From an uncultured Methanosarcinaceae archaeon (GTDB lineage: Archaea > Halobacteriota > Methanosarcinia > Methanosarcinales > Methanosarcinaceae): a stretch of 64,000 nt of DNA. The stretch lies in contig CAVTET010000003.1 of assembly GCA_963733675.1 (NCBI GenBank), forward strand, positions 576,001-640,000, read 5' to 3'. Positions 7,986 to 64,000 of this stretch are shown one piece after another. Made by a program: the position numbers and the translations under genes. Position 1 is the first letter of the stretch. Every line of letters begins with the position of its first letter. The notes under the pieces were generated by a model, which was not told the DNA's origin, did not search any database, and saw only the letters and a list, made by a program, of their open reading frames with translations.

Positions 7986-8210
7986 AAATAAAGTATAAAT
8001 AATGATAATTTGGTAGCCATAAGTCTTTATCAAAATCTGCTTTTATTATCTGCAACTTATTTTACATTGAGTGCATTCTTGTCTAAAATTTATTTTATAG
8101 GCTCTCCATAATTTGCTTTTTTTAAATCACAAACTTTATTAATATAAACGCAATTTAATTTGATTTAATTTAAATCATATTTACTTGACTTGATATTTCA
8201 TGGTGATCCT

Positions 8211-8921
8211 ATGCATATAATGGAAGGCTTTTTACCGGTGTTCTGGTGTCTAATATGGTTTACAGCATCAATACCAGTGATTGCATATGGTGTTTACAAC
8301 CTTAACAAATTAGTGAAAGAAAAACGCGAGATATTATCTATCCTTGCTGTCGCAGGTGCATTTATCTTCGTACTTTCCTCCTTGAAAATGCCTTCCGTTA
8401 CAGGAAGTTGTTCCCACCCTACAGGAACAGGTGTAGCTGCAATCATTTTTGGACCTGCGATTACTGCAGTTCTTGGAACTATTGTACTGATATTCCAAGC
8501 TTTCTTCCTAGCTCATGGAGGGCTTACGACTCTTGGAGCAAATGTATTTTCCATGGGCATCGTGGGTCCTGTGGTTTCATACCTGATTTATAAAGCCGGA
8601 ATGAAAGCCAAACTCAACTTTTATTTAATTGTCTTTCTGGCTGCAGCTTTCGGGGACTTAGCTACTTATATTACAAGTTCTACGGAACTTGCTTTGGCAT
8701 TTCCTGCAGGAAGAATCTTAAATTATGTGGGTTTCTTCAGTTCATTCAGCAAATTTCTGGAAGTCTTCGCAATTACTCAAATACCCCTGGCAATCATCGA
8801 AGGCGCTGTTAGTGCCTTACTCTTCAAGTACGTGATTGAAGTCAAGAGTGATAATATCCTTGTTGAAATGAAAGTATTGAACGAATCTTTAGTTCGTAAA
8901 CTCAGGGGGCTTTCTTCATGA
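8211..8921 (+). CDS. cbiM: ECF cobalt transporter substrate-binding component
   Basis: N-terminus MHIMEGFLP, GSCSHPTG and HGGLTTLGAN; first gene of an MNQO cluster. Confidence 0.93.
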   Translation: MHIMEGFLPVFWCLIWFTASIPVIAYGVYNLNKLVKEKREILSILAVAGAFIFVLSSLKMPSVTGSCSHPTGTGVAAIIFGPAITAVLGTIVLIFQAFFLAHGGLTTLGANVFSMGIVGPVVSYLIYKAGMKAKLNFYLIVFLAAAFGDLATYITSSTELALAFPAGRILNYVGFFSSFSKFLEVFAITQIPLAIIEGAVSALLFKYVIEVKSDNILVEMKVLNESLVRKLRGLSS

Positions 8922-9262
8922 GCAGGAAACTTGAATTTATCGTGATTGCTATAATTCTGATTTTTGTAGCTCAGTTCTTTTATATGTCTTCTACCACACA
9001 TGCTGACTATGGTGGAGCTGATGACAAACCCGTAGGTGTTATTGATCAAATTACAGGTGGGACTTACAAGCCAATTGCAAAACCTATCTGGGTACCTCCA
9101 AGTGATGAAATCGAAAGTCTGCTTTTTTGCCTTCAGGCAGCTACTGGTGCAATAATTATCGGTTACTTCCTCGGGTATTACAGAGTAAAGAATCGTTTTG
9201 AAAGCGATTTCGGTATGCAAAGGGATAAAAAGGTGCAAAGGGACGAAAAAATCCAAACATGA
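8918..9262 (+). CDS. cbiN: Cobalt transport protein CbiN
   Basis: Two TM helices flanking YGGADD..YKPIAKPIWVPPSDEIESLLFCLQAA; ATGA overlap with cbiM. Confidence 0.9.
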   Translation: MSRKLEFIVIAIILIFVAQFFYMSSTTHADYGGADDKPVGVIDQITGGTYKPIAKPIWVPPSDEIESLLFCLQAATGAIIIGYFLGYYRVKNRFESDFGMQRDKKVQRDEKIQT

Positions 9263-9404
9263 TAGACAATCCTTAATTTTTAGCCTTTAGAGGATTCATT
9301 GAAATCAGAAATTTATCGAAATACCCTTTCATTTTTTGTTGGCTATAACCCACTAAAATAGCTAATAATTTTTTAATTTTCATCCACTTATCCGCAGGTT
9401 CCCA

Positions 9405-10187
9405 ATGAACAATATTCTTGACGACTATGCTCTTATTAGCCCTCTACGGCACCGAAACAACTGGCTAAAACTGGCAATAGTTTTCTTCGGATTGATTGTA
9501 GGAGTCTCATGTGCATCCCCTATCACTCCTGTATTCATAGCTCTTTGTATGAGTTTTACGACAATTGCTTTTGGGAGGGTGTCTCCTATACTCTATTCTA
9601 AACTTTTACTTGCGCCCATGGGCTTTGCAGCTACTGGTATCCTTATAATTACTTTTTTCTCAGGCTCGGGACATGAGCTGTTGTCCTTCCAAATTATAGG
9701 TCATCCTTTTTCGATAAAGGCCGATGGACTTGAGCTTGCTCTTCTAGTCCTTTCTAGGTCCTTTAGTGGGATGTGTTGCCTTTACTTCCTTGCACTAACA
9801 ACACCTATGATTGAACTCTTTGCTGTTTTCAAAGCTTCCAAGCTACCAGAGTCTCTGATCGAGCTTACTATGCTAATTTATCGTTACATCTTCGTCTTTC
9901 TTGAAATTGCCAGTTCCACAATGTATGCCCAAACAATGAGATTAGGATACTCGAATTTCATACGTTCCATTAATTCTATTAGCATGCTTACAAGCACAGT
10001 TTTTATAAGATCTTGGGAACAGGGAGATAAGCTCTTCCTTGCAATGAACTCCAGATGTTATAACGGAAAAATGACTGTTTTCGAAGTTCAAAAGCCTATA
10101 AAAACAATAGAATTGCTTTTAACTTCTGTTTATTTCATCTCGACTATTTCCCTCTTTTATTTTACAAAAAATATATCCATTGTTTGA
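9405..10187 (+). CDS. cbiQ: ECF transporter T component
   Basis: Hydrophobic; LIYRYIFV, AQTMRLGY and AMNSRCYNG motifs. Confidence 0.9.
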   Translation: MNNILDDYALISPLRHRNNWLKLAIVFFGLIVGVSCASPITPVFIALCMSFTTIAFGRVSPILYSKLLLAPMGFAATGILIITFFSGSGHELLSFQIIGHPFSIKADGLELALLVLSRSFSGMCCLYFLALTTPMIELFAVFKASKLPESLIELTMLIYRYIFVFLEIASSTMYAQTMRLGYSNFIRSINSISMLTSTVFIRSWEQGDKLFLAMNSRCYNGKMTVFEVQKPIKTIELLLTSVYFISTISLFYFTKNISIV

Positions 10188-10198
10188 GGTAACATATT

Positions 10199-11560
10199 GT
10201 GATCATCCTTGAGACTAGAAGCCTTAAATACACCTATCCAGACGGGACTGTAGCTTGTAAGGATCTGAATATTGAAATCAAAAAAGGAAAAAAGGTCGCT
10301 TTTGTAGGGCAAAATGGCTCCGGAAAGTCCACACTTTTTCTACTTATGAATGGGACCTTAAAGCCTGATGAAGGTGAAGTTCGTTTTCATGGAATTTCGT
10401 TTAAATATGATTCCAAGTCCCTCAGAGAAATCCGAAAATCCATCGGAATCGTTTTTCAAAATTCTGATGATCAGATCTTTGCTCCCACTGTATACCAGGA
10501 TATAGCTTTTGGGCCGGCTAATCTGGGTTATTCAAAAGAAAGAGTCGATTTCTGCGTGAAGCATTCCCTTGAGCAAGTTGGACTCTCTCACCTGCAAGAC
10601 AAGCCTCCTCATCATCTCAGCGGAGGGCAGAAAAAAAGGGTTGCACTTGCAGGTATTATGGCAATGGAACCCGAAATAATCATTCTGGATGAACCCCTCT
10701 CGAATCTTGATCCGATTGGTGCGGATGAAATAATGGATCTGCTTAACGAATTTAACCAATTCGGGACCACTATCATAATCTCCACTCATGATGTGGATCT
10801 CGCATATCGCTGGTCTGATTATGTGTACATCATGTCAAACAGCAAACTTATAGGCCAGGGGACACCTACAGAAGTTTTCAATGAGCAGGAACTTCTAAAA
10901 AAAGCGGGCCTCCGTCAGCCAACTACTCTTGAAATTTATTATGAAATCGAAAGGAGAGGGCTTGCTTATGGGAAAAACTCCCCGAAAACAGTACCAGAGC
11001 TTGTTAATACCTTCAAATCACTAGATCTTATGTGGGTTGATGTTCCGCCAAAGGTCAAGGAAGGAGACAGTCTGAACCTTGGAGTTATGTATGGGGATTA
11101 TGCAACTCATTCCCCTTATGAGGCTATTAATGCTAAGGTTCTGCATATTCATCCCGATGGAAGAGCCATTGTTGAATTGAAGCGTAAGGCCATTAAAGCC
11201 GGTGGAGTTTTACTTTATGATACTAACAATTATTCCCTCAAAGAGATACAACAAATCCTGAAAGAGGGAGAAATGGTTTTTGTAGGGGCAATGGGCAAGA
11301 AAAGTAAAATTCTTGCCGAAAAGAACGGTATCCACTTAGATGTCACCTCAGGCGTTATAGACAAATCGATCTTAATGTCTCTTTGTGGAAAGCGTTGCCT
11401 CATCCTTGCAGCCGGCGGTATGATAGATCATGCTCTGAGAAGAATAAGAGAATACGTGGAAAAAAGTGGGATAGAACTTACTATGGGTGTTGTCAACCGG
11501 AAAGAAAGCTGCGAGCGGCTTGAAGAAGCAGATGATGAATCTGAAATTCTTGAGCTATGA
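10199..11560 (+). CDS. cbiO: ECF transporter ATPase with C-terminal extension
   Basis: Walker [22 protein letters not shown] and STHD; GTG start. Confidence 0.92.
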
Positions 11561-49913: not shown

Positions 49914-50413
49914 ACTAATTAGTACATGTTTTAGTACAAAAATATGTTAATCGAAACAATACGTTTAGAACCAGAATCTAAAGCTGGCATATATTTTATA
50001 ATATGTAAATTTGTTTCTTGATTCTCTTTTATTCATACGATACAAAGTTATATCTTTTGTTTTCGATATTTTCGCTCCTTCAGAAAAATATGTGTTTATT
50101 TGAATATTTTTATTAGAAGAACTAACTTATGTCCATTATTTTCCAAATGATAATTCAATTTGTTCATTTTAGGCAAGTATTTATGATCAGAAACAATATT
50201 TCCTCATATAATATATTACTTGACTATTAATCATCAAATAACATTTTTTGAGATTGTCAGTTTTGATAACCAATTATTATATCCTATAAATATACAAGTT
50301 GCCTTGAATATACGGATATGTAATTATTTGACGAAATGGTATTCTCACAGTGTGTCTATCGATAGAAAACATAAAAATGTATCAAATTAAGCAAAATTTT
50401 GGAGATGAAACAA

Positions 50414-50782
50414 ATGAGTAAGCAAAAACTTTCCAGAATAATTAATATTTTGATAGCTGTATTTCTCATAGTAACATTAACAGTTGCTTCAGCAAGCGCA
50501 TGTTCTAGTAAGTCGGTCAAAAACTCAAATTCGGTTGATAACAATATCCCTGTCGACTCGAATCCGGTTAATTACGAAAATCCCAGCAATATGAATCCGA
50601 TTAGCAACATGAATCCAGTTAGCAACACGAATCCGGTTAATTACGGAAACCCCAGCAACATGAATCCGGTTAATTATGGAAATCCCAGCAACATGAATCC
50701 GGTTAATTATGGAAACCCCAGCAACATGAATCCAGTTAACGGAAACCTTGATAATGGGTTTAATTCTAACAGTTGGATTTGA
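50414..50782 (+). CDS. Small secreted Asn/Pro-repeat protein (leader family member 1)
   Basis: Leader MSKQKLSRIINILIAVFLIVTLTVASASA, then NPVNYGNPSNM repeats (33-bp unit); GGAG ribosome-binding site. Confidence 0.8.
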   Translation: MSKQKLSRIINILIAVFLIVTLTVASASACSSKSVKNSNSVDNNIPVDSNPVNYENPSNMNPISNMNPVSNTNPVNYGNPSNMNPVNYGNPSNMNPVNYGNPSNMNPVNGNLDNGFNSNSWI

Positions 50783-52064
50783 ACATTTGGTTTGTCAGCT
50801 ATAAGGCCTATTGGGTTCTACAAAAAAATAATTGAAACAAGAGATTTTTTTATCATTTTCTGGATTTTTGATTGAGTGCAGCCATTAGCCGGTATAATTA
50901 ATTGCACATTTTGTCAATACCAGAAGATATTAAAAAAATCTCTGGAATAAAGAACTTTCATTATAGTCCTCAAAGTAAAAATGAAGATTTCAAAAACTTA
51001 GACTAATGAACTTATCTACAAGTAGACTTACTGGTATTTTCGCAAATTTGCTGTAAATTCAAAGCTGAATTTTTGTATACTATCTGTAATTGGGTTCTTC
51101 AAAGGTGTGATTTCTACCCGCAAAATTTCTTTAGAGTTTTGATTTCAAAAAAAGAGATCCACTTTCTTATACCCTCTCTACTAAACTTAAATGTAGAGAC
51201 TTTCAGTTATTCCCTAGGTTTTGAAAATCTGTGCATTTTTTCAATTTGATCCAAAATTTTGATATTTTTACTGGAATTATGTGGCAACACTGCAGAAATT
51301 TTGAGAAAATGTATCATTTTTACTAAAATAATTGTTACAGCATAAATCCAAAATGTTGCTGCCTTCAGACATTGAATAATATAATTTCTATAAATATTGA
51401 ATGTAAATGTTATTAGAACATGTAGAAATTAAATTGCTCCATAACTACATCAACGATAAAGCTCCATTGCTTCAAACGAGACACTCTATATAAATCCAAG
51501 TATATCACATTATTGGACCTTCTGGCAAATTACATTATTAACTTCGTCAGTGATTTACTTGAACGTACTGGTGGTTGATGCGGGGATTCGGCTAAGAACC
51601 TTTAGAATACCTAATTATGGCATCTGAACAAAACTAGGGAAAACGTGGAAATGCGCATACAGGTGTTTACACATGGAGATTATTTTATATGAGATACTAA
51701 CTGAAAAACTTGTTATTTCATGGAAACAATACTCTTTCGTTAATGAAACAACACCTAAAGTCAATCCCTATATCTCTTCACAAGCTACAATCGTCAATTT
51801 CTCCTGAAATATATGCCCATAGTACTCAAGTCAATGCGCCTAAATCAGGATGAAGGATATCAGCTTACAAGTGCACTCTGGAATGATTTGAAGTATTTTG
51901 CAGATATCGATTTATTACTTTTCAAGATGGATAAAGAAACAGTATCAATGGATGTTCACACACCATCCAATATGGATAGTAAACAGCTTGATTTCCATCT
52001 TATTTTTGGCACTTTTATAATTAATTGTGCCAATTGTAGACCTAATGCAGCACCGATAAAGCAT

Positions 52065-52154
52065 AGACCATTACGATTTGCCTCTGATTTTTATAAATTA
52101 TTTATCTGTCACTCATAATCATATGACACAATTTAGGAGTTTGTCAAAATTCTC
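52065..52154. mobile_element. About 90-bp inverted-repeat element, degenerate
   Basis: TTACGATTTGCCTCTGATT...CATATGAC...GGAGTTTGTCAAAATTCTC; colinear with 5115-5202. Confidence 0.6.
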
Positions 52155-52299
52155 CTTGATTAATTTTTTTTTGTGTCCTTTGGATATGTGGAAATATTTT
52201 CGGATTAGAAGATATTCAAAATATGGAAGAGAATCAAAGTATAAGTAATAGTACAAATAATATCATTATACTGAGCCCAGTTGACAAAAATATTTAATG

Positions 52300-52490
52300 C
52301 AAATGATAATTGTGGACAATGTGTTAGATTTTTGGAAAATATGAATTTCAGGGATACATACTTTCTTGGGTCATAATGAGTAAAGAGTCTACAACTAGTA
52401 AATATTCTTGTTGAACAACTAAAGAATACAATCGAATTTGATAATGGTTAGGGAACAAGTTTCAAAATACTATTTCAGAAAAAAGACTAA
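52300..52490 (+). pseudogene. Histidine kinase HATPase C-terminal remnant
   Basis: IIVDN, ENMNFRDT and LQLVNILVEQLKNTIEF..GTSFKILF match the Methanosarcina sensor kinase C-terminus; directly upstream of a receiver gene. Confidence 0.65.
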
Positions 52491-52527
52491 TTCTTTTGAA
52501 GTTTATTCATTATAAAGGAGAGGTACA

Positions 52528-52938
52528 ATGAAAAAAGCAAAAATTCTGGTTGTCGAAGATCAGAGTATAGTGGCTCTCAACATCAGGAATAAGCTGATAA
52601 ATCTCGGTTATACTGTGCCTGGTACTGCATCTACTGTAGAAGAAGCCATAAGAAAAGCGAAGCTGACAAATGCAGATCTTGTTTTGATGGACATTATGTT
52701 GAAAGGGGATAGGGATGGAATTGAAGCTGCCCGTGAAATCAAACAGCAACTAAAAATCCCGGTACTTTATTTGACCGCATATACTGATGATGAGACTCTC
52801 GCTAGAGCAAAAACTACAGAGCCTGCAGGATATATCTCAAAACCTTTTAAGGAAGAAGACCTGCATATCAGTATAGAGATGGCTTTGCACAAACAGAGAA
52901 TTGAAAGAGAAGAGAGCGATAACCTAGTTGATAATTAG
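52528..52938 (+). CDS. Response regulator receiver protein
   Basis: ILVVED, LVLMDI, DG, YLTA and YISKPF; GAGG ribosome-binding site. Confidence 0.92.
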   Translation: MKKAKILVVEDQSIVALNIRNKLINLGYTVPGTASTVEEAIRKAKLTNADLVLMDIMLKGDRDGIEAAREIKQQLKIPVLYLTAYTDDETLARAKTTEPAGYISKPFKEEDLHISIEMALHKQRIEREESDNLVDN

Positions 52939-52964
52939 TTTTTTAAACAAAGAGCCAAAAAAAC

Positions 52965-53819
52965 GGTTCCGTTGCAAAAAATCCTTTCTAATGATACAAT
53001 AGAATAAAAAGAAAACCAAAGATAGTAGTATGCTATCTAATTCCTTTAAATGGAAGCATTATGAAGGAGAAATTATCCTATTGAATGTAAGATGGTACTT
53101 AAAATATCCATTGAGCTATAGAAATTTAAAGGGAATGATGATAGAAAGAGGAGTAAAAGTCGACCATACAACAATCATGAGATGGATACATCAATATTCC
53201 CCTGAAATCGAAAAGAAGATAAGAAGACATTTAAGACTAACAAACTATTCGTGGAGAGTTGATGAAACCTATATCAAAGTAAAGGGTAAATGGAAATATT
53301 TTTACCGAGCAGTTGACTCAAATGGAGACACAATTGATTTCATGTAAAGTGCAAAACGAAACCAATAAGTAGCGAAGAGATTCTTTAAGAAAGCTTTGAG
53401 TTCTAATCATAATCAAATTCCACAAGTAATAACAGTTGATAAGAATCCAGCTTATCCACCTGCTATAGATGAACTGAAAAATGATAAAATACTACCTAAA
53501 AACGTAAACCTTCGACAAATCAAGTATTTGAATAACGTTATAGAACAAGATCATAGATCTCTAAAGCAAATCGTTAATCCAATGTTAGGATTTCAGTATT
53601 TTCTATCTGCTAATAATACTTTAAAAGGAATTGAATCTATGAATATGATTAAAAAAGATAAGTCAATAATTTAAATTACTCTGTTTTTAATGAAGTCAAA
53701 TACATTAATCAATTGCTTGGTATAGTTTCATAATGTTAGTACATTTTCTTTGAATATTTTGATTTTTATTCATTACTCATAGATTTACATGCTTATTTTG
53801 AAATTTTTGCAACGGAACC
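52965..53819 (+). mobile_element. IS6-family element, inactive
   Basis: Both GGTTCCGTTGCAAAAA TIRs present. Transposase has an internal TAA (53345-53347) and a late frameshift; no flanking duplication. Confidence 0.93.
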
Positions 53820-54145
53820 ATATTATGTCTAGCTTGATCATGCATTCCCATTCTTTTTCTATATTATTAGTTAGCAATATTCAAAGATTATTCAGCAAGA
53901 TGTGGAATATTTATCTACCTTCGTTTGAGTGTTATAATGTATTAAACTTCTAATATATGTTCACTCAGTTTGATAGTTAAATTGATATAGTCATATATAT
54001 AATCACAAAATTTGTAAGTTTCTTACTTATAAATTTATTTTTGATCAAAATTCGATCTTATAGTCGTAAATGCATCAATTATTTTTTACCTGCTTTATAT
54101 ATAATCCGACAAGTTCCTCTATAAAATATCTAAACTACGTGTTGT

Positions 54146-54696
54146 ATGAATTCCGCAATAACTATACAGAACGTGGTGGCATCCGCTACGTTGGCTGAAG
54201 ATTTAGATCTACCTAAGATCGAAGCTGGGCTGGAAGGCACCGAATATAACAAAATGAAATTCCCGGGTCTTGTTTACAGAATTAAGGATCCTAAGGTATG
54301 CTTTCTAATTTTCACCACCGGAAAAGTGGTATGCACCGGATCCAGGAACGTCGAGAACGTCTACATAGCTATAACCAATCTAACTAATACGCTCAAGTCC
54401 ATTGGCTGCGAAAGGATAGATACAAAACCTGAGATTCATGTTCAGAACATTGTAGCTTCCGCAGATTTGGATGCGCAACTAAACTTGAATAGTATTGTTA
54501 TGGCCTTTGGCATAGAAAACGTCGAATACGAGCCAGAGATATTTCCTGGGCTTGTTTATAGGATTAAGGTTCCAAAGTTAGTAGTGCTCTCGGCTCTGGC
54601 AAGTTGGTGATCGCGGGTGGCAAAACTCCGGAGGATTGCGTGGAAGGTGCGCGGATCATCAGGACAGAGTTCGACAACTTCGGATTGCTTTATTAA
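54146..54696 (+). pseudogene. tbp: TATA-box binding protein paralogue with a frameshift near 54590
   Basis: [28 protein letters not shown] and a second repeat [13 protein letters not shown]; [14 protein letters not shown] continues in another frame to TAA 54696. Confidence 0.88.
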
Positions 54697-54777
54697 ATAT
54701 ATCCTAGAAGTCTGTAAACTCGTAACGGATGCCACATACTAAATTGGGAAGTACATAAGAGAATAATAGGAAAAAAT

Positions 54778-55056
54778 ATGCATATAACCAACAAGACAGA
54801 AACAGAAGATACGATATTTGAATTTACACTTTCTCACTCCGGCTCACCTAGAGACCCATTCGACCAGACCCTAGTATGCATTTTAAGAGGAAAAGACGGC
54901 TTAGGCTTTGCAGAAATAGACATCTCCCAGATAATAACAAGAACAGGCAACTTTAAAGAAAGAAAAATATCACAATAGTACATTGAAGAGCCAGGAAATA
55001 GAAAGCCTGGTGAAAATATAGTAAAGAACAAACAACTAAAATTATTAAAAATATGA
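54778..55056 (+). CDS. Hypothetical protein, possibly with an internal amber codon
   Basis: 66-codon ORF with AGGA upstream; TAG at 54976-54978 is followed by 25 more open codons. Confidence 0.35.
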
Positions 55057-56178
55057 ACCCGATTATTGAAAGTGGGCAAAATATAAAATATCTAATTAGG
55101 CGAGTTTTAAAAGAATAGATGGGGTAATCAAAGGAAATACTTTGTCTGTATTTTGTAAAATCTGGCTGGACATGTCTTTCTTCAACCTGTGATTCTATCA
55201 TTAAAGATTTTATGGAAGTTGGGTATGACAAAGACGAAAATGAATCCGTTTATAACCACAATAAAATTCTTCACTGTTATTTTTGGGGCTCTGGTGGTCG
55301 TGATTATGGCCGTTTTCAAAATGCTATTGAGAAGACAGACTCGAGATAAAAGTAAATTCCTTTTTCTTTGTTTTTTGTCTTATTTAATCCTGTTCGGACT
55401 TTAGCAGGCCTGGTGGGATGCTCGGATAAAAACAGTAAGTAAAGACTTTTCCTAAAATGAGAATAGAAAACTAGTAATTATATTTTTTTTTGCAGCTGGA
55501 ATAAAGCAAGCTTAAGATAAAAAAGGATGAAGGGCAAGCCAGAGGACAGGCCAGATAATCCAATAGTTTTATTGGAAAACAACAGTATATTTAAAGGCCA
55601 TTTATAAATCTATTTTAATAAAACATGTGTAAAACAGATCCTTTTCAGCCGAAAATATCCGAATATCAGCTAAAATCTCCCAAAATACAGAGTTTTCATC
55701 ACAAAAAAAACTGTGTATTAATGAACCAATATAAAGTAATAGTAAAACTCACAGAACAGAACGAAATAATGCTGAAATCCAATATATTCCCTTTATTTGA
55801 TAAAGTGCTACTTTTATTGCAAACTATATCAACGATAATTCAAATACAATCCAATAAATGGTACACTAGAATGCACTGGTAAATTTCTAATCTGTAGCTG
55901 GACAAGGTCTAAACTAAAATACAGATGGTAAAAAAGCATACTTAAAGGATCGGAGAAAAAGATGCATGAATCATGTTTTTTCGATTGTAATGTTTTGATT
56001 TATAAGTGAATTTCATTTTTATTTCATATGGACCTAAGTTTAAATGATAATAAAATATAGCCATCAATTCAAGCAATTTATCAGAAATTCATTTATTATG
56101 CCTTGAAAAGATGGCTATGATGCTATTTCATTTTGTACTCACCAGCTCCAGACTCAGCGACTGTGCTCGTTAGATCCG

Positions 56179-56520
56179 TCAGTGATGGCCGTGGCCATGA
56201 CCGTGACCGTGGCCATGATGGTGGTGATGGTGGTGGTGATGGTGGTGCCAGTGATGATAACTGTCCCAGTATCCATCTCCATCGTATCCGTAGCCATATC
56301 CGGCTACTACAACTGGTTCAACTGCAACTGGTTCTGTATAATAACCACCATAATAACCATCTCCCCAGTACCCGTGATGATGGTGATAGTGATGATGATG
56401 TCCATGGCCATGGCCATGCGGAGCAGCAACAGCTGCCATAGCTGTCATTGATGCCACAAAAAGAACTGCTAGCAAAATAACCAATATCTTTTTTATTTTA
56501 CTAGATGTTTGTTTCAACAC
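56179..56520 (-). CDS. Small secreted histidine-rich protein (leader family member 2)
   Basis: GGAGTGA RBS, GTG start, leader MLKQTSSKIKKILVILLAVLFVASMTAMAAVAA; about 30 His in the 80-residue mature part. Confidence 0.85.
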   Translation of the reverse strand: MLKQTSSKIKKILVILLAVLFVASMTAMAAVAAPHGHGHGHHHHYHHHHGYWGDGYYGGYYTEPVAVEPVVVAGYGYGYDGDGYWDSYHHWHHHHHHHHHHHGHGHGHGHGHH

Positions 56521-56820
56521 TTATTTCACTCCTTTATGACTAAAATTGATAATTGTACTGGAATTTTTTCTTGGTAACTATTCAGGCTACAAAGAATTGA
56601 TTGGTTGACATCTATTCTATTACGTCAACTACTTTTGATGAACTACATTACTTATTGAGTTTGTTAGTTATTTAAAATTAATTATAAAAAAAATAGCTTC
56701 TGAATAAAACTTCTTTTCCCATAAAATATTTTAACATTGGACTATTATTTAATATTAATATTGTTTTATTAAAAAGTAGGATGTTGAGCCAATATTTTTG
56801 CTGACAAAATTTCATTTTTT

Positions 56821-56900
56821 GTTGTTTGGGTTAAGTAGTTTCAAGTGCTCCATAAGCTCCACATGCTCTATAAGTTACATAAGCTCCATGAGTAACAGAT
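56821..56900. repeat. 9-bp-periodic element, copy 1 (copy 2 at 62221-62318)
   Basis: TAGTTTCAAGTG followed by ATAAGCTCC-like units and AAGCTCCATGAGT in both copies. Confidence 0.7.
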
Positions 56901-57219
56901 ATGTATCTGGTGTGTATCCTTCCAGTGAATCTTGATACTAAGGGTTGAAATAACGGTATACTCTAAATTGTTTTAAACTTTCACCTTTTTTTCTTTCCAA
57001 CTGCATAAATCCTATCATATTTCTTTTATTGAGATGCAGATGTACTTTTTAATATCATAGACTTTTTTAGACATACTTATTTATTTATAGCCCCCTTGTC
57101 TTATAATTAACGTGGTTTCTAATTATACTGATATACATAACATTAAAAAACCGTTTATTTTGGCACTTGGCCTAGTGCATAGTAAAAATATCAAAATAAT
57201 ATTTAAAAGACGGTCTATT

Positions 57220-58374
57220 ATGGAAATGAAGTATAAAGTATTCTTTCTATTAATCAGCATGATTTTATTGTCGGGGACTGCACTTGCAACATCTCTGACC
57301 TTGAAATCTGTTTCACAGCCTTATTACATTGATCCACAGCATAATTTATGGCTCAAAGTCAACATGAATGGCAGCACACAACATTTCAATGCGTACAATA
57401 CGCCTGGTTATTCTCCCAATGGAGATATAGTCATGTGGGCATACGATAATTTTAGCTCCGGCAGCTTAAATACATCAAAGTGGACAGCTTACAAAGAAGG
57501 AAGCAATAAGTCAACAGTAGAAATACAAAATGGATATTTGGTGTTGTCAGGCTCTGGTAACACATCTTCTGCGAACGTTGTGCTTAATAAGCCATTTACA
57601 AATGGCATCGAATTGGCAGTAAATGAAACATTAGCAGGGGGTACTAATGATGTTGGCACATTTACTGATGCTTCTTTTGGTGCAGGTACACTCGTAGGTG
57701 GGATAAGGGGAACAGATTGGTGGTACACAAGATTCGCTACAGGTGGGGGCTCATTCCAAAGCCAGGGAATATATAATGCGATGATTTGGGCAAACTCAAA
57801 CAGTTCGGATGTTAGTATGCCCACTCCTGGAATCAGATTAAGTGATTACATAGAAGAGGGTATCCCACATACATTGGCATATAGTTATGATGCTTCTGGT
57901 AATGCAAATATGTACATGCTAAATATAACTCAAAATCGTCTCCCTTTATCTATACCTGATCCATACGGATATAACCAGTTCAATCACCCATCTCAAGATA
58001 CTCTAGGGGCTTGGACTGTGTTTTACATTCAAGCAACTGAGAAAAATGGTGTATGGAAAGTTGGAGAGTTTACAACTCCCCACGCACCACTTATGGCAAT
58101 CAAAAACACACAATATCTTTATACCCCAAAACAGTGGGTGCTATCACAAGGCGATTCACCAAAAAGTCATGGAGTCAAAAGAGAAATCAATGAAGTTTGG
58201 GGATATAAAACAGGTCACACACCAAAAATAAACGCAAAAAATATGGGAACATATACTCAAATTGATGTTAAGCCAACCGATTTACAAAACGTGTCTAATT
58301 ACCAGGTAATGATCCCTGCTAGTATGCTTAACATATCATCAAAGAGCGAGTCTCTGGATGTAGAGCGTGCATAA
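57220..58374 (+). CDS. Secreted beta-rich protein (DUF2341-like motifs)
   Basis: Sec-type signal MEMKYKVFFLLISMILLSGTALA; PYYID..LWLKV..NGDIV..YDNFSSGSLNTSKW; Ser/Thr/Gly/Asn rich. Confidence 0.75.
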   Translation: MEMKYKVFFLLISMILLSGTALATSLTLKSVSQPYYIDPQHNLWLKVNMNGSTQHFNAYNTPGYSPNGDIVMWAYDNFSSGSLNTSKWTAYKEGSNKSTVEIQNGYLVLSGSGNTSSANVVLNKPFTNGIELAVNETLAGGTNDVGTFTDASFGAGTLVGGIRGTDWWYTRFATGGGSFQSQGIYNAMIWANSNSSDVSMPTPGIRLSDYIEEGIPHTLAYSYDASGNANMYMLNITQNRLPLSIPDPYGYNQFNHPSQDTLGAWTVFYIQATEKNGVWKVGEFTTPHAPLMAIKNTQYLYTPKQWVLSQGDSPKSHGVKREINEVWGYKTGHTPKINAKNMGTYTQIDVKPTDLQNVSNYQVMIPASMLNISSKSESLDVERA

Positions 58375-58725
58375 GTGCAAAAATGTTAGGATATTATAAA
58401 ATATCTTATTATAAAATAACCGCATGTTGTGAAGATAATCAGGTATAATGCTGCTGTTAAAGTGTCTGGTTTACCATCATTTTCATCCATTTTTTTCGTT
58501 CCGTGACATGACTATTATTCAGCACTTAATCGAAGATGTATGGTAACTTTTTACAACATGTCATTATTGCCTTTTCGGATAGGTTTTTAGAGAAAAACAA
58601 AAAGTAAAGTTATTTTGGAACGTTATTTATATTGACTAAATTAATCCACTTAAGAGTCGAAGATGTTCCCCCATCTCCAGAAGTCTGTGAGCTTGGAGAT
58701 GAGATGAGTCTGGATATGCTGGTGT

Positions 58726-59067
58726 TTATGTAGCTGGTTTTGTTTCTGGATCTTTTGATGCTGTTTCTGGAAATAGAGTTGCTCCTGCAAGATTTGGACT
58801 TGGATCTGAAGCTTTTGCGGGCTCTGCAGGTGCTGAAGCATTCACTGTGTATGGCATTCCACCGTATGAAGGACAAATCCAATTACCGTTTACCCATACA
58901 CAACCAGTACCATAGCCCCAGTAAGGATGAATTCCCCAGCCCCAAACGCCACCCCAGCGACCGCCGCCATGTGCACTAACTGCCACTGTTGTCACAGATA
59001 ATACAAAAAGTACTGCCAGCAAAATGGTCAGTATCTTTTTTAATCTACTCACTTTTTGTTTCAACAT
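58726..59067 (-). CDS. Small secreted Gly/Trp-rich protein (leader family member 3)
   Basis: Leader MLKQKVSRLKKILTILLAVLFVLSVTTVAVSA; core HGGGRWGGVWGWGIHPYWGYGTGCVWVNGNWICP; Pro/Ala tail. Confidence 0.8.
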   Translation of the reverse strand: MLKQKVSRLKKILTILLAVLFVLSVTTVAVSAHGGGRWGGVWGWGIHPYWGYGTGCVWVNGNWICPSYGGMPYTVNASAPAEPAKASDPSPNLAGATLFPETASKDPETKPAT

Positions 59068-59638
59068 TCAACTCATTCCTTTCTTGTTAGGTTTGATACA
59101 ATCTTAATCTGGCTAGAAAACAATTTGTTGAGATCGGAGGTTTATTTTAACTTTCATATGACTGTATGATAAACTTGTATTTAATATTTTTCTTTTATTT
59201 AATTATATTTTATGCTATTAAAATTAAAAATTGTGTTATTTACTCCAAAAAAAGAATTTAGATATGTTACTGATTGAACAATCATTCGTCCAAATCAATT
59301 AAATTAAAAACTCAAAAATGTTGATATTTTACAGATGCTATGCCAGAAAAAATTTCGGAAAATATTGAGATTATCGATGTCCAGGTTTTTCTTACCTGGC
59401 TATCGAAAATATTTACACTTACAAGCCAACAAAAGTTTGTTAATATCAAGTAGGCAGTGTACTAGAGTTCTGCAAATTTTGAATGGTTATATGCCCTTTA
59501 TTCATTACTTGTTCTTATTCATGGACCTAATTATCATTACAATTTACATTTTGACTCAAAATGCAATGCTTCTCTTGGATCTATGCAAGATGGGAATAAA
59601 GCTAAACTTATGAATAAAATTAAAAATTGTCCGAAAAA

Positions 59639-59666
59639 GTAATATAAAAATATATATATGTAATAC
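59639..59666. promoter_or_regulatory. NikR-type operator enclosing a TATA box
   Basis: GTAATA-N16-TAATAC (NikR paradigm GTATGA-N16-TCATAC) with AAAAATATATATA in the spacer, about 115 bp upstream of nikM. Confidence 0.55.
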
Positions 59667-59782
59667 TTGACAATCTGTTTTCATAAGAATATTCTATCAC
59701 TTACGAAGTTAGACTAATACCCGGTCAGAATAAGAATTTCAGCTTAGAACCATAGGAAATTAGTTAGGGGAAGATAGAATAA

Positions 59783-60508
59783 ATGCACATTCCAGATGGA
59801 TATTTAGGGCCGCACACATATATTGCGTTTTGGATCATCGTGATCCCGATATGGTATTATGCAGGACAAAAACTGAGCACAGAGCTCAAGTCCAAACAGG
59901 TACCACTGCTAGCATTATCAGCTGCGTTCTCATTTGTAATAATGATGTTCAACATCCCTGTTCCAGGTGGCAGCACAGGCCATTCCATCGGCGGTGGAAT
60001 TCTCGCCATAGTCATAGGTCCCTGGGCAGCAATTATAGCTATATCTGTAACTTTGGTATTGCAAGCAATGATTTTTGGTGATGGTGGAATAACAGCCATA
60101 GCCACTAACTGCTTTAATATGGGAGTAGTAGTACCTTTTGTCGCTTAGTATGCCTATAAGCTTATTAGCGGAAATTCAGAGATTACATCTTCTCTAAAAG
60201 TTATTGCTGCGGCTATCGCTGGCTGGATTTCTTTGACCATGGCATCTTTTTGTGCGGGCATTGAATTAGGAATACAGCCAATTTTAGAGCACACAGTTGA
60301 TGGAGTCCCACTTTATATGCCATATACATGGAATGTAACTGTTCCTGCCATGGTACTTGAACACGCTTTGGCATTTAGTATTCTTGAAGCACTGATTACA
60401 GCAATTATTTTTGCCTATATCCTGAGAACAGATACATCTGTATTTTACGGAGAGAAATCTGAAGCTGAAATTAACAGAACAGAAATAATGAATGGAGTCA
60501 CAATCTGA
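59783..60508 (+). CDS. cbiM: NikM/CbiM-family ECF substrate-binding protein with one in-frame TAG (readthrough gene or recent pseudogene)
   Basis: MHIPDGYL, FNIPVPGGSTGH and FGDGGIT; TAG at 60146-60148, after which the same frame continues YAYKLI..GIELGIQP..PLYMPY to TGA 60508. Confidence 0.85.
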
Positions 60509-60517
60509 GGTGAGAAT

Positions 60518-60841
60518 GTGGATAAGATGATAAGAAACTTATCTATTGGCCTGATATTATTGATCATATTTGCGCCTTTATGTCTGCTTGCGGCAGGCAC
60601 TGCATATGGTGAATGGGTACCAGATGAGCTTAAGGACCGTATCGGGTTTGTGCCACATGGGTTGGAAGAGCTCTCTGATTTATGGCATGCACCACTGCAG
60701 GATTATAATATCCCCCCCACTCCTTCTTTTAAGGATTCGAAGCTGGTATCTTCTGCTGGATACGTTTTGTCTGCAATAATCGGTGTAATAGTTAGTGGCG
60801 GTTTTTTATATTTAATTGGAAAGAAGGCAACTAAACACTAA
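60518..60841 (+). CDS. PDGLE-domain (NikN-like) membrane protein
   Basis: Two TM segments around GTAYGEW..GFVPHGLEEL..APLQDY; GAGGTGA RBS; follows nikM. Confidence 0.8.
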   Translation: MDKMIRNLSIGLILLIIFAPLCLLAAGTAYGEWVPDELKDRIGFVPHGLEELSDLWHAPLQDYNIPPTPSFKDSKLVSSAGYVLSAIIGVIVSGGFLYLIGKKATKH

Positions 60842-61558
60842 CAAATTAATCACGTTTAGAATCATGATGATCCAAATTTTAATTTTTTTAGGACGGAACT
60901 TAGATATATTGGGTATAAAAAGGCTCAATTACTTGATTTAATTGTTGGATTTACTGCATGCACGAAAATTGGATATATCATGAATAGAGTAGGCATAATA
61001 TTGTGCCAATTTTAAAAATAGTAGATTGGAAGGATGGAGTGATAAAACCCTTCCATAAAGCATGGTATTTTATTTTAGAAACCTGAAACCTGCAGCTGCC
61101 TAAACTATAGATACGGAATTCCATCACCATAGGTTCGATGGCTAATTTCAGATTGTCTTATTTTCGATATCTTTTGGATAGACATATGAATGTATAAAGA
61201 CTTCATATTTAACATTTTCTTTTGTTTTTTTCATATTTTATATTATTAGGCTTAAAACTAATATTACTCATTTTATTTTAAGTCAACCATTATTTCAATT
61301 TACTTTAGTTTCTGAATTATTATTCCTCACATATTATAAATCAATGTTTAAATATAATCTAATAAGTGGATATTTAATTATACTAGTTATTATATAACGA
61401 AGTATAATTATAAATATACTTACTTCCATTTATTTTTTAAGATAGACTATTTAAAATCGTAACGATTTTTACCAACGATTTGAGATTGGGAATAAATGGA
61501 AAAAATAACAGCCTTATAGAAATAATACAAAGTGAGAACAATTTTGGAGTGTATATAT

Positions 61559-61888
61559 ATGGGGAAACAAAAATTTGACAGAATGAAAAAAACACTTAGC
61601 ATTCTAGTGCTAGTCTTTTTAGTAGTATCAGCGACAGCTGTTGCAACTAGTGCAGCACCACGTAATGGTGGTTGGTCGTGACGGTGGTTTTGGTCATGGT
61701 CACGGTAGTTATGGCGGCTTTGGCGGTGGCTGGGGACCTGGCTGGGGAGGACCTGGGTTCGGATTTTATCCACCTGCTCCCATGGCGATGGCGGAGATAG
61801 TGATGTAGTCTGCGGACCTTATGGCTGCTTCTGGAATGAGGCTACAGCATACATTCCGAAGGCTATCATAGCCGATAACGGTTGGTAA
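61559..61888 (+). pseudogene. Frameshifted small secreted Gly/Trp/His-rich protein (leader family member 4)
   Basis: Leader MGKQKFDRMKKTLSILVLVFLVVSATAVATSA; +1 frame GRDGGFGHGHGSYGGFGGGWGPGWGGPGFGFYPP; returns to the first frame HGDGGDSDVVCGPYGCFW..GW stop. Confidence 0.75.
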
Positions 61889-62220
61889 AAAAAGTGTTTT
61901 TTCGATGACTATAAAGCTTAAGTATTAATATAAATTAAAAACCCTAATATTTGTAAATAAAACTATTGGCTTTTCATTAATTTCAGAGAAGGACAAAATA
62001 ATAAGTGCTGTAGAAAACTCAAATGAAACAGAGCAATACAGATGACCTTAAGGAATGTCATTATTGCCCTGAAAATTAGGTGACCAACTCCTTTTATTAT
62101 CCATGGAGATAACATCTATCAACATGAAATTAACAACAATAAAATATTTATTGTGTAATTAGTGAAAAAATCAACCAGATGCTTATATACTTTTCTGTTC
62201 TGAAGTTTTCTTTCTATGCT

Positions 62221-62318
62221 TGTGGTTTAGTTAATTAGTTTCAAGTGTTCCTGGAGCTCCAAATGTTCTAAAAGTCCCATAAGCTCCAAGAGTCCCAAAA
62301 GCTCCATGAGTCCGAGAT
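62221..62318. repeat. 9-bp-periodic element, copy 2
   Basis: Homologous to 56821-56900 with extra 9-bp units. Confidence 0.7.
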
Positions 62319-62410
62319 CGATAAGGTTTTCTTACTATTGATGGCATTTAGGAAATCCAGAGATTTAATCACAAAAACTGTGCCTATTTCTCATAACAGT
62401 CAAAAATAAG

Positions 62411-62559
62411 GGTTGTGAGGCAAAAATAATATTTATGTAGTTTGATACTGCAATTCTTACCTTTGTGTACTTTTTTTCGGTGGTGAGAATGATTCACTTT
62501 CCTATTTGTGATGTTTTTCACTGGTTTTATTAAATAGCCAGATTTTTTGCAACGGAACC
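62411..62559. mobile_element. 149-bp MITE with IS6-type termini, copy 3 (diverged)
   Basis: GGTTGTGAGGCAAAAATAATATTT...GATTTTTTGCAACGGAACC; colinear with 13755-13903. Confidence 0.8.
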
Positions 62560-62922
62560 CATATTTTTAATTAAAACCAATGCAATACCTGAAAAGCAAA
62601 AAATTTCTATATTCATATCCTTCGTGTTTTACAAATTTAAACGTAGAATCTGAAAAATAGCTATTTTCTCAAAAAGGTTGCTATTCAGACAACTGAAGAA
62701 ACAACTATGCTTTTGATATTAAAAAAATCAATAGTAATCGTATTTCTTTTACTGATTTCTATTATCTTGGCATTATCAGATTAACTTCTTTTTCCATGCT
62801 ATATTTTGTTTTAAGAACGCTGCAAACACGAGATTCAGACATCCAAAGAGTTAAATAATATTAATAAAATAAAAAATTTTGGAAATACTACACTATTAAT
62901 AATTGACAAGGTGTGAAATTAC

Positions 62923-63055
62923 ATGAGTAAAGCAAAAAAGACACTTGTTATTCTACTGGTAGTTGGTTTTTTTACTATCAGTGACATCTGCAACAGCAAT
63001 CGCAAAAGGTGCAAAAGGCATTGGCGTAGCGATCAAGTTCGTCACGAAAGAGTAA
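62923..63055 (+). pseudogene. Leader family member 5, frameshifted in a T7 run
   Basis: With one T removed from 62967-62973 it reads MSKAKKTLVILLVVGFLLSVTSATAIAKGAKGIGVAIKFVTKE stop; GGTG RBS. Confidence 0.6.
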
Positions 63056-63088
63056 GGAAACATGTTCTGGTTTAAAGGAGGCTTTTTG

Positions 63089-63757
63089 ATGCCAAAAATA
63101 TTTATTCTTGCTCCTGCAACGCCCCACGCTTGCAGCATTGCAAACGCAAGCGCCAAAACATTGCCCGACATAGTGTACGACACGTCTTTGGTACAAAGTG
63201 TTGGAACCGCATTTTTCTCGCAAACCAGCATCGTCCTGGCTGGAGGTTGTTTTTGGGGTATCCAAGCCGTGTTCCAGCATGTCAAAGGTGTGATTGACGC
63301 TGTATCTGGCTATGCAGGAGGGGCAGCGGATACGGCACATTACGAAAGCGTTGGCACCGGCAAAACAGGTCATGCAGAGTCGGTACAAGTGACGTATAAC
63401 CCTGCGCAAATAACACTCGGGCAAATACTGAAAGTGTTTTTCTCGGTCGCTCATGATCCCACTGAGCTTAACCGACAGGGTCACGACCACGGAACACAAT
63501 ATCGCTCAGCGATATTCTATTCGACTCAGGAACAGAAAGAAGTTGCTGAAGCTTATATTGACCAATTGCAACAAGCAAAAATATTTAAGGCTCCAATTGT
63601 AACCAGGTTGGAGCCTTTAAAGGCTTTCTACCCAGCTGAGGATTATCACCAAAACTATGCAAGGTTTCACCTGTCTGATCCCTACATTGCGATCAACGAT
63701 ATGCCGAAATTGAAAGCACTTGAGAAAGAGTTTCCCAATCTTTACATAAAACAATGA
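63089..63757 (+). CDS. msrA: Peptide-methionine (S)-S-oxide reductase
   Basis: AGGCFWG, SGYAGG, TGHAESV, HDPT..NRQG.D.GTQYRSAIF and FYPAEDYHQ; AAGGAGG RBS before ATG 63089. Confidence 0.95.
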   Translation: MPKIFILAPATPHACSIANASAKTLPDIVYDTSLVQSVGTAFFSQTSIVLAGGCFWGIQAVFQHVKGVIDAVSGYAGGAADTAHYESVGTGKTGHAESVQVTYNPAQITLGQILKVFFSVAHDPTELNRQGHDHGTQYRSAIFYSTQEQKEVAEAYIDQLQQAKIFKAPIVTRLEPLKAFYPAEDYHQNYARFHLSDPYIAINDMPKLKALEKEFPNLYIKQ

Positions 63758-64000
63758 GTATGTTCAATGTTGTGCGAGCTTTCGTCGAAGGAGTCGGGTT
63801 GATCCTGACGTCTTGCACTTGCCGATTTTGCGATCATTCTGGCACGAAGTTAAAAGTCCAATGAAATTTATGACCTTATCAAAACTTGTAGTTATGTACC
63901 TTACATAGAATTATCTAGCAGGTATAATCAGATGAATGGACTATGCAGGGGCCTGATGTCCCTGATTATGATTTTGAAACTAAATATGAATTCAGTTGTG

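Follow-up and report, generated by a model that had tools for sequence, protein, structure and literature searches.

We analysed a 64,000-nucleotide stretch of DNA from an uncultured Methanosarcinaceae archaeon (the window; positions 576001-640000 of contig C3 of its genome) and found that it carries members of a large family of small, exported-type proteins that share a homologous N-terminus, the leader, and continue into unrelated low-complexity cores. This much agrees with an earlier note on the same DNA, which had described five short genes between 50414 and 63055 (g1 to g5 below) as a local 13-kb cluster; it missed that two of these genes are broken, that the family spans the whole genome and that g3 and g4 sit in a repeated transporter module. 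The reading we prefer, at a probability somewhat better than even, is that of a Sec-exported, genus-specific peptide family whose most likely role, suggested by composition and synteny, would be extracytoplasmic metal handling, of nickel and cobalt (Ni/Co) above all.

A hidden Markov model (HMM) of the leader was built from the first 34 residues of g1 to g4 and searched against 84,672 six-frame segments of at least 25 amino acids (aa) from the whole genome (3.92 Mb in 15 contigs, among them those labelled C1, C3, C5, C7 and C13). At E ≤ 1e-3 it matched 89 segments, 85 of which have a start codon in register, so what had looked like a local cluster is part of a genome-wide family. The 85 members have a median length of 102 aa, with 18 below 60 aa, 57 between 60 and 159 aa and 10 of 160 aa or more, and they lie on nine contigs. 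Of these genes, 44 have another member no more than 10 kb away; placing the genes at random gave 29.3 ± 5.4, and 44 was the highest value in 500 trials. The small contigs C13 and C7 are the densest, with 13.9 and 7.9 members per 100 kb (0.9-3.8 elsewhere), and also hold repeated 140-aa 'MARPxKLT' proteins, ribbon-helix-helix-like proteins and integrases, which suggests that they are islands or extrachromosomal elements. A further family member stands just past the window end, at C3:641162-641851.

With a second profile (A1), an alignment of 24 leaders, we followed the family beyond this genome. In an order-wide draw it matched 17 of 18 genomes of the same genus and none of 12 that represented five other families. 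A draw across the family gave matches in 18 of 19 genomes of the genus and in 11 of 101 from 15 other genera, the latter with one or two matches per genome at marginal E-values of 7.5e-5 to 9.4e-4. Numbers of leader matches, which are not exact copy numbers, reach 101 in this genome (G000) and 127, 92, 89 and 89 in four related soil or peat Methanosarcina genomes (G166, G153, G162 and G165); the other genomes searched gave 0-27, with seven in a complete 5.8-Mb genome. By these profile matches the family is limited to the genus Methanosarcina and expanded to about 90-130 leader matches in a soil/peat sub-clade. Soil metagenome runs contain near-identical DNA; runs X9-X17, whose word shares were small, did not enter this view of the habitat. 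One locus of the g3 type (L034) lies on a 1.19-Mb contig titled as an Alphaproteobacteria metagenome-assembled genome (MAG) and has the same match statistics as a locus from a Methanosarcinaceae MAG (L035); its title probably reflects a labelling or binning problem.

The leader itself, 27-33 residues long, has the layout of a signal peptide. Its A1 consensus is MLKQxxxRMKKVLxILLAVLFVVSLTAVAASA, with the h-region VLxILLAVLFVVSL, and its first 13 residues carry a mean net charge of +3.18 (range 0 to +5, n = 85). We mapped the predicted cleavage site at HMM column 32, the last leader column, in 67 members: Ala occupies position −1 in 61 and a small residue (A/V/S/I/T) position −3 in 64, and the −2,−1 dipeptide is SA in 47, GA in one and GG in none. 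The twin-arginine motif of the Tat pathway (RRx##) is absent from the n-region of all 85 members, and the class III (pilin-like) motif occurs in only one of 85, the consensus reading KK-V-L. This n-h-c layout predicts a cleavable Sec-type signal peptide processed by signal peptidase I (SPI). Like Sec/SPI signal peptides in general, the leader begins with positive charge in the n-region, continues into about 14 hydrophobic residues and closes its c-region with A-x-A; unlike them, its n-region is unusually long and conserved (M-L/G-K-Q-x3-R-M-K-K), and its 32 residues are homologous in about 90 paralogues of one genus, where ordinary signals share physicochemistry only. Families of paralogues built on a conserved signal are known elsewhere, as in the variable lipoproteins of mycoplasmas, and the NCBIfam entries TIGR04207 (halo_sig_pep, for haloarchaeal glycoproteins), NF045726 (Vmc-like lipoprotein signal peptide) and NF045871 (MBA N-terminal) likewise describe one signal region heading repeat-containing or unrelated mature parts. 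The window differs from these in matching them at only 13-16 bits against cutoffs of 19-55, in its lineage, in having no lipobox except possibly in g1, and in showing no phase-variation machinery.

A thioredoxin (PF00085) and a cupredoxin (PF00127/PF13473), both above the Pfam cutoff, begin with the same leader at equal HMM strength, and by our eye a cytochrome-b5-like open reading frame (ORF) carries it too. Leader-bearing thioredoxin-fold proteins lie at C5:320456-321166, C1:1035476-1036213 and C13:12649-13305, one of them within the cluster of family genes on C5; an exported thiol-disulfide oxidoreductase beside peptides with a Cys pair may be a meaningful pairing. The presence of the leader on such proteins argues for an export signal and not for a recognition leader read by peptide-modifying enzymes. 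The earlier note had drawn an analogy to leaders of bacteriocins and of ribosomally synthesised and post-translationally modified peptides (RiPPs), and the layout of a leader plus a variable core, together with the two Cys found in 24 of the 57 small members, would fit precursors of RiPPs or class II bacteriocins, with a leader read by a modifying enzyme or a peptidase-exporter. This analogy does not hold up: the double-glycine site is missing, the leader is strongly hydrophobic and signal-like, and no YcaO, LanM, radical-SAM or C39-ABC gene was seen beside members, in a survey that covered 40 window ORFs with Pfam and the clusters of 300 neighbouring ORFs by eye, the latter only partly Pfam-scanned. 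The only radical-SAM ORF of the window is 13 kb from g1, and the note's own remark that neither a modifying enzyme nor a dedicated exporter is visible near the genes stands in the Pfam scan of the 40 window ORFs. We consider RiPP or class II precursors very improbable. The opposite possibility, a generic signal peptide that any large Sec substrate might carry, applies in part, in that thioredoxin and cupredoxin bear the leader; but by a crude signal-peptide filter it occurs on just 9 of 131 signal-peptide-like ORFs of at least 200 aa, against 36 of 108 of 100-150 aa (the small-ORF denominators contain spurious ORFs), and other genera match only marginally. Since so few of the large exported candidates carry it, the leader is not this organism's generic signal.

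A further alternative is that the leader is never removed and acts as an N-terminal membrane anchor, with the low-complexity parts forming a tethered brush on the outer face, an arrangement that would suit a metal role or a structural one. About 21 uncharged residues run from the KK pair to the polar core, enough to span a membrane, and AlphaFold2 draws one continuous helix over residues 2-33 with a disordered remainder for both g3-type and g4-type proteins (pLDDT 56.5 and 52.2, too low for a fold search). In the other direction, Ala at −1 and a small residue at −3 have been kept in front of unrelated cores, which fits a peptidase site and would be needless in an anchor, and the c-region is rich in Thr, Ser and Ala. 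We regard an uncleaved anchor as distinctly unlikely, and return below to the proteomic observation that speaks for it.

Behind the leader, the mature parts have a median length of 73 residues (57 members shorter than 160 aa) and a strongly skewed composition: Gly makes up 19.6%, Tyr 7.2%, His 5.8%, Trp 3.7% and Cys 2.3%, against 7.1%, 3.5%, 2.0%, 0.9% and 1.3% in the long ORFs of the genome. Cys is absent from 20 of these 57 small members and present exactly twice in the 24 mentioned above. Across 67 mature parts, Gly reaches at least 20% in 23 and His at least 10% in 11, and His is the first residue after the predicted cleavage site in 12. Repeats such as YPNYPS, AVGAVP and GYGGWGG occur among members. 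Subfamilies were assigned by eye together with motif patterns (BLAST without composition correction lumped 34 Gly-rich members into one cluster); the members have about 19 or more unrelated cores. Those we could name by eye are the g3 type (GCxWVxGNNWxCP, GMPYT, PSPNLAG..F), the g4 type (YPPAPYG..GDS..CGPYGC...A(E/D)(Q/N)GW), the His-rich g2 subfamily, the Asn/Pro-type g1 subfamily with a Cys after the leader, a set of Gly/Tyr/Trp/Cys-rich proteins, a His/Asp-rich subfamily with a C-terminal CxWxxxxxxWVxxC, a PVMVKEKK...H7 subfamily and a Lys/Val/Ala-repeat subfamily. The mature parts had no match above the curated cutoff in Pfam, NCBIfam, PADLOC or PDB families; beyond the signal region, neither g3 nor the g4 fragments nor a g4-type protein without frameshifts matched anything in Pfam or NCBIfam at E ≤ 0.01, a profile of the g3 family searched against PDB returned antibody chains only (E > 0.06), and the best ESM Atlas score for mature g3, 0.77, was noise.

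Such a composition recalls coat-forming Gly-rich proteins, of which plant glycine-rich wall proteins and sulfur-globule envelope proteins are analogues, and the peptides might accordingly be structural or matrix proteins of the envelope, self-associating as disordered Gly/Tyr/Trp-rich coat or filler between membrane, surface layer (S-layer) and the matrix of cell aggregates. The many Gly-rich mature parts, the strong Tyr/Trp enrichment, the three repeats, the predicted disorder, the high RNA contig depth of the g1 type and the number of members without metal ligands are all in keeping with this. It leaves unexplained why two subfamilies are repeatedly paired with the NikM/PDGLE transporter genes described below and why some members are poly-His; about 90 small proteins with about 19 or more unrelated cores would be odd for bulk material, and no homology to structural families was found. 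A structural role is in our view unlikely, though one to be taken seriously.

Within the window, where genes were located by ORF listing and direct reading of the sequence, g1, g2 and g3 are intact, whereas g4 and g5, which had also been counted as whole short genes, are broken. The shared leader is recognised in g4 (E = 2.5e-20), g3 (8.3e-19), g2 (6e-16) and g1 (1.5e-13), and in g5 only after a shift of one nucleotide (nt) in a run of seven T. A ribosome-binding site (RBS), claimed for each of the five, is found as GGAG, GGAGTG or GGTG 8-14 nt upstream of g1, g2, g4 and g5, and g3 has a weaker GGAATG. The first gene, g1 (50414-50782, + strand, 122 aa), has the leader MSKQKLSR---IINILIAVFLIVTLTVASASA, in which three consensus residues are missing, and a core of about five repeats of an 11-aa Asn/Pro unit, encoded by a 33-nt tandem repeat of 5.4 copies; a paralogue lies at C5:78942. 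Checked against the lipobox [LVI][ASTVI][GAS]-C, g1 and its paralogue both read A-S-A before a Cys at +1, with Ala and not Leu, Val or Ile at −3; from this Cys, the g1 type is possibly a lipoprotein. On the − strand, g2 (56179-56520, 113 aa, GTG start) encodes a His/Gly/Tyr-rich core, HGHGHGHHHHYHHHH followed further on by a run of 11 His and GHGHGHGHGHH, and has paralogues at C1:165221 and, frameshifted, at C1:99940. Its Glu-Pro-Val repeat at 56317-56325 contains 36-40 additional bases in RNA contigs from two runs, so the repeat number differs between strains. Histidine-rich metal-binding proteins are known from Helicobacter (Hpn and Hpn-like), and g2 and its kin share long His and His-Gly runs with these and with His-rich plant defensins; there is no sequence relationship to Hpn, and the family carries an export signal whereas Hpn is cytoplasmic. 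The third gene, g3 (58726-59067, − strand, 113 aa), is divergent from the NikM-like gene and reads, in order, a G/W-rich stretch, the Cys loop GCVWVNGNWIC-P, GMPYT, a Pro/Ala linker and PSPNLAGATLFPET.

The broken g4 (61559-61888, + strand), of the CGPYGC...GW subfamily, lies 3' of the NikM-like and PDGLE genes on the same strand. Its leader is intact, and the frame from 61559 runs for 40 codons to a TGA at 61679-61681; the Gly-rich middle follows in the +1 frame (to 61808), and the tail CGPYGC...ADNGW is again in the first frame (to 61888). Because eight intact paralogues read through without a break, g4 carries two frameshifts, which we place near 61665-61680 and 61783-61790. In g5 (62923-63055, + strand, short n-region) only MSKAKKTLVILLVVGFF, the first 17 residues of the ATG frame, matches the leader; the h/c-region LLSVTSATAIA and the stop at 63053-63055 come into frame only with a +1 shift within the seven T at 62967-62973. 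Its two pieces score E = 0.043 and 3.2 with the leader HMM, blastn places a 1-nt gap there against four paralogue leaders, and the core would be just about 16 residues long were the frame restored (KGAKGIGVAIKFVTKE). An independently assembled metagenome run (X1) yielded contigs that match the window without a difference at 61745-62062 and 62343-63160, which span the second g4 shift and the g5 T-run; these two breaks are thus not artefacts of this assembly alone. A putative decayed sixth copy at 61185 (− strand) we ruled out: it has no leader-HMM match, no RBS and no hydrophobic stretch, and lies inside a conserved non-coding spacer of which five other copies are 83-85% identical (blastn).

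How the family evolved can be read from its paralogues. In an alignment anchored at the start codons, the only conserved DNA is the RBS (GGAGTG, −12 to −7) and the coding leader, with a 3-nt periodicity, and none was found further upstream of the RBS. Leaders of 27 same-register paralogues differ at a proportion of 0.41 at synonymous (pS) and 0.27 at non-synonymous sites (pN), a pooled ratio of 0.65, by which the leader appears to be under moderate purifying selection on top of common ancestry. Leader sub-types track core sub-types (MGKQKFDRMKT... goes with CGPYGC cores and MLKQKVSRLKK... with g3 cores), and because they match we favour whole-gene duplication with fast core change over the re-use of a leader cassette. 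A possible origin of new cores from old by frameshift was rejected, since all 93 of 93 pairs with similar core DNA are in the same frame. Over aligned columns, the ratio of non-synonymous to synonymous substitution (dN/dS) of the mature part is 0.49 for the g3 type (n = 5), 0.34 for the g4 type (n = 8) and 0.09 for the g2 type (n = 2), against which the transporter genes of the module give 0.16 (NikM-like) and 0.27 (PDGLE); judged by these ratios, mature parts are under purifying selection within subfamilies. The family as a whole undergoes birth-and-death turnover, with tandem and segmental duplications, repeat expansions and about one fifth of copies truncated, g4 and g5 included. In databases, the g3 type has 38 homologues of 54-96% full-length identity, with invariant residues in the mature part; all are unnamed or 'hypothetical' and none has a Pfam domain. 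A g4-type profile searched against 1.84 billion representatives found 80 proteins of 40-152 aa, 11 of them at E ≤ 1e-10.

A conserved signal with fast-diverging mature peptides is typical of toxin and antimicrobial families, and Gly/His-rich and Trp-rich peptides are common among eukaryotic antimicrobials. Secreted antagonistic, archaeocin-like peptides would thus agree with the conserved leader and unalignable cores, with the birth-and-death turnover and its 18 copies below 60 aa, and with the insertion sequence (IS) elements, integrases and island-type genes nearby. One member also gave sub-threshold Pfam matches over its signal/pro part to a YxzE-like putative bacteriocin (21.4 bits, cutoff 40) and to Conotoxin (17.7 bits, cutoff 25.1). 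Both lie under the cutoff, however, and the dN/dS of 0.09-0.49 indicates purifying and not diversifying selection; cores are mostly neutral or acidic and Gly-rich, not amphipathic and cationic, and no recurrent immunity gene, dedicated exporter or processing protease was seen beside members in the survey of 40 window ORFs and of the neighbour clusters. Conotoxins and amphibian skin peptides likewise form large gene superfamilies that turn over rapidly, in which a conserved signal precedes short, very divergent mature peptides that often contain Cys pairs; they are eukaryotic, however, have a pro-region and evolve under diversifying selection, where this family stays below a dN/dS of 0.5 with no indication of toxic activity. 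We consider an antagonistic role quite improbable.

RNA contigs cover the genes, which together with the selection on the mature parts speaks against the worry, raised in the earlier note, that they might be neither transcribed nor constrained. The RNA data are assembled contigs of three metatranscriptome studies (peat and others) that are 90-99% identical to the window; they cannot rank expression and may derive from paralogues or relatives, which qualifies all depths given here. Depth is 250-320 over 50356-50614 for the g1 type, with a 9-nt insertion that is also present in the C5 paralogue, and 124.8 for the g2 bin in run X20; the whole of g3 lies inside one 693-nt contig (58451-59122), and the g4 bin is covered as well. 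The intergenic bins 54884-55771, 59324-59767 and 61100-61543 show RNA of 0-0.4 (up to 1.65 in one run), and a DNA run covers them.

The metal role is preferred because g3-type and g4-type genes flank a NikM-like/PDGLE pair in a duplicated module and because other members, g2 among them, are extremely His-rich; the metal capture that the earlier note had listed among several options thereby gains circumstantial support. In the window, the module comprises a NikM-like CbiM-family substrate component beginning MHIPDGYLGP... (59783-60508, + strand; PF01891, E = 1.4e-40) and an intact 107-aa PDGLE-domain protein, a NikN-like small membrane partner of NikM (60518-60841, + strand; PF13190). The NikM-like gene aligns as one 241-aa tblastn segment in a single frame at 92.9% identity and is interrupted by one in-frame TAG (60146-60148), at a codon that specifies Tyr in its paralogues and in the orthologue of M. 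barkeri. Methanosarcina can decode UAG as pyrrolysine, and some full-length NikM-like protein might still be made. The full module order is a gene for a secreted protein of 420-654 aa (+), the g3 type (−), the NikM-like gene (+), PDGLE (+), a spacer of about 700 nt and the g4 type (+). From maps and tblastn, it recurs besides the window at C5:312-318 kb, C13:27-30 kb (all genes intact), C1:1004-1011 kb and C7:3-8 kb, and two further copies, at C1:355-357 kb and at C3:361-363 kb, have decayed. Six of the seven PDGLE loci of this genome have a g4-type gene within 4 kb, downstream on the same strand; conversely, 7 of 10 g4-type loci are at a NikM-like/PDGLE pair (one is in a remnant, two are elsewhere), and 4 of 7 g3-type loci are beside a NikM-like gene. 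Among the 300 ORFs within 3 kb of the 85 members, the recurrent neighbours are IS6 transposases (19), beta-propeller surface proteins (12), CbiM-family proteins (11), the island-type 140-aa protein (8), PDGLE (5), the 420-654-aa secreted family (5) and also tetratricopeptide repeat proteins. In other genomes, the module was found at two MAG loci and at 6 of 27 PDGLE loci, all of the six in G153, G162 and G166.

If the preferred reading holds, a single export signal would have been inherited by descent throughout the multigene family, and each gene would give rise to a mostly disordered mature peptide of about 40-110 residues, in which Gly, His, Tyr and Trp abound and a single Cys pair is common. 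On the outer side of the membrane, the peptides would be either set free or held in place, below the S-layer or past it. Peptides bearing His, Cys and Asp could then bind and concentrate scarce metal at the cell surface and hand it to NikM/N, the substrate-capture unit of an energy-coupling factor (ECF)-type Ni/Co importer, which would be powered by shared CbiQ/CbiO encoded elsewhere, for example at window 9405-11560. There, a canonical operon of cbiM, a small ORF, cbiQ and cbiO occupies 8190-11560, 45 kb 5' of the module; apart from the NikM-like copies, the genome encodes four or more canonical CbiM proteins. Small accessory parts of Nik systems offer a parallel: according to PMC2667541, these nickel importers (NikMNQO, NikKMLQO) employ variable accessories, either NikN or NikK plus NikL. 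Like the g4 type, which follows nikM-PDGLE at six of seven PDGLE loci of this genome, these are small, sequence-diverse, lineage-variable and encoded beside nikM. NikN and NikL are membrane proteins and NikK a larger periplasmic one, whereas g3-type and g4-type products are short, disordered, predicted exported peptides, and these are missing at the nikMN loci of most Methanosarcina. A complex prediction of the NikM-like protein, PDGLE and a mature g4-type peptide (score 0.00, mark 0.32) speaks neither for nor against.

Several observations weigh against this reading. The transporter link concerns two subfamilies only and is partly one event copied by segmental duplication; in other genomes, 21 of 27 PDGLE loci have no family gene within 1.5 kb, among them those of the M. 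barkeri type and all 13 from genomes with single or fused nikMN. Some module-borne g4-type proteins lack any His-rich stretch, His-rich members are a minority, and nothing points to metal in g1, in the Gly/Tyr/Trp/Cys-rich proteins or in those with Lys/Val repeats. A leader pN/pS of 0.65 indicates moderate constraint only, the RNA contigs stem from related strains and not from raw reads of this organism, and a proteomics study of M. mazei (PMC4350412) reports that predictors over-call signal-peptide removal in Methanosarcina, so that the leader could persist and anchor the protein in the membrane. Members may well differ from one another in function. A more specific proposal, that the large, fast-changing repertoire of the soil/peat sub-clade consists of Sec-exported peptide metallophores, short disordered His/Cys/Asp/aromatic peptides that would scavenge Ni, Co and other trace metals outside the cell and feed duplicated NikM/PDGLE units with which the g3 and g4 types are co-inherited, we put forward as tentative and rather unlikely; if true, methanogens would have a new gene-encoded route to trace metals, one that would help to determine how much methane wetlands poor in metals produce. 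Should the module link be functional, it would amount to an unrecognised layer of Ni/Co acquisition in the archaea with the largest Ni/Co demand: according to PMC2667541, no other archaea equal Methanosarcina in the size of their Ni and Co metalloproteomes.

Irrespective of its role, about 85-100 ORFs of a 3.9-Mb genome make up a single family of small, predicted exported proteins that is specific to the genus and had not been described; its database copies seen are all 'hypothetical' (for example, MSBR3_1523 of M. barkeri 3, a strain with 14 leader matches). The leader profile offers a handle for most of the Methanosarcina small secretome, whose genes are otherwise easily missed or mis-called, and relatives open to genetics carry 7-14 members. 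The family is a clear archaeal case of a conserved signal peptide joined to rapidly replaced low-complexity cores, and as far as our literature search reached, a secreted family of this kind is new for archaea. That full-text search found no description of it (supplementary tables, which might list members, were not covered), and it is not among the Methanosarcina-specific expansions in the part of PMC4158269 that lists them.

The remaining parts of the module and its surroundings are briefly described here. The secreted protein that opens the module in the window (57112-58374, + strand) has no Pfam or NCBIfam match; its likely start is the ATG at 57220 (MEMKYKVFF...), with an ordinary signal peptide unrelated to the family leader. 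Compared with the 654-aa form, this 420-aa copy is missing about 268 residues from its centre, and the 420-654-aa family occupies at least 12 genome loci, preceding g3-type genes in three module copies. In six aligned copies, two of which come from other genomes, the AT-rich non-coding spacer (60842-61558) shows a mean column identity of 85% and is conserved to the level of coding sequence, with no ORF and an RNA depth of 0-2. It has no Rfam match, and an alifold analysis with compensatory pairs at 1 of 39 and a positive covariation term leaves a structured RNA unsupported; Rfam over 50000-64000 gave a single sub-threshold snoRNA match, and thus no riboswitch is seen in the module. The spacer may be promoter or operator DNA. 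In M. barkeri 3, PDGLE is followed by a repeat-filled gap and then cbiQ. One g4-type gene of this genome, at C1:892231-892539, stands divergent and 5' of nifH and further nitrogenase genes, with no NikM module there. Between the family genes of the window, at 53030-53674 and 54146-54742, an IS6/IS240 transposase is split into two ORFs and a TATA-binding-protein paralogue loses its frame near the C-terminal end; together with the broken g4, g5 and nikM, this makes the 50-63 kb region look like a decaying, IS-rich variable region. The IS6/IS240 transposase sequence is very deep in all metagenome runs.

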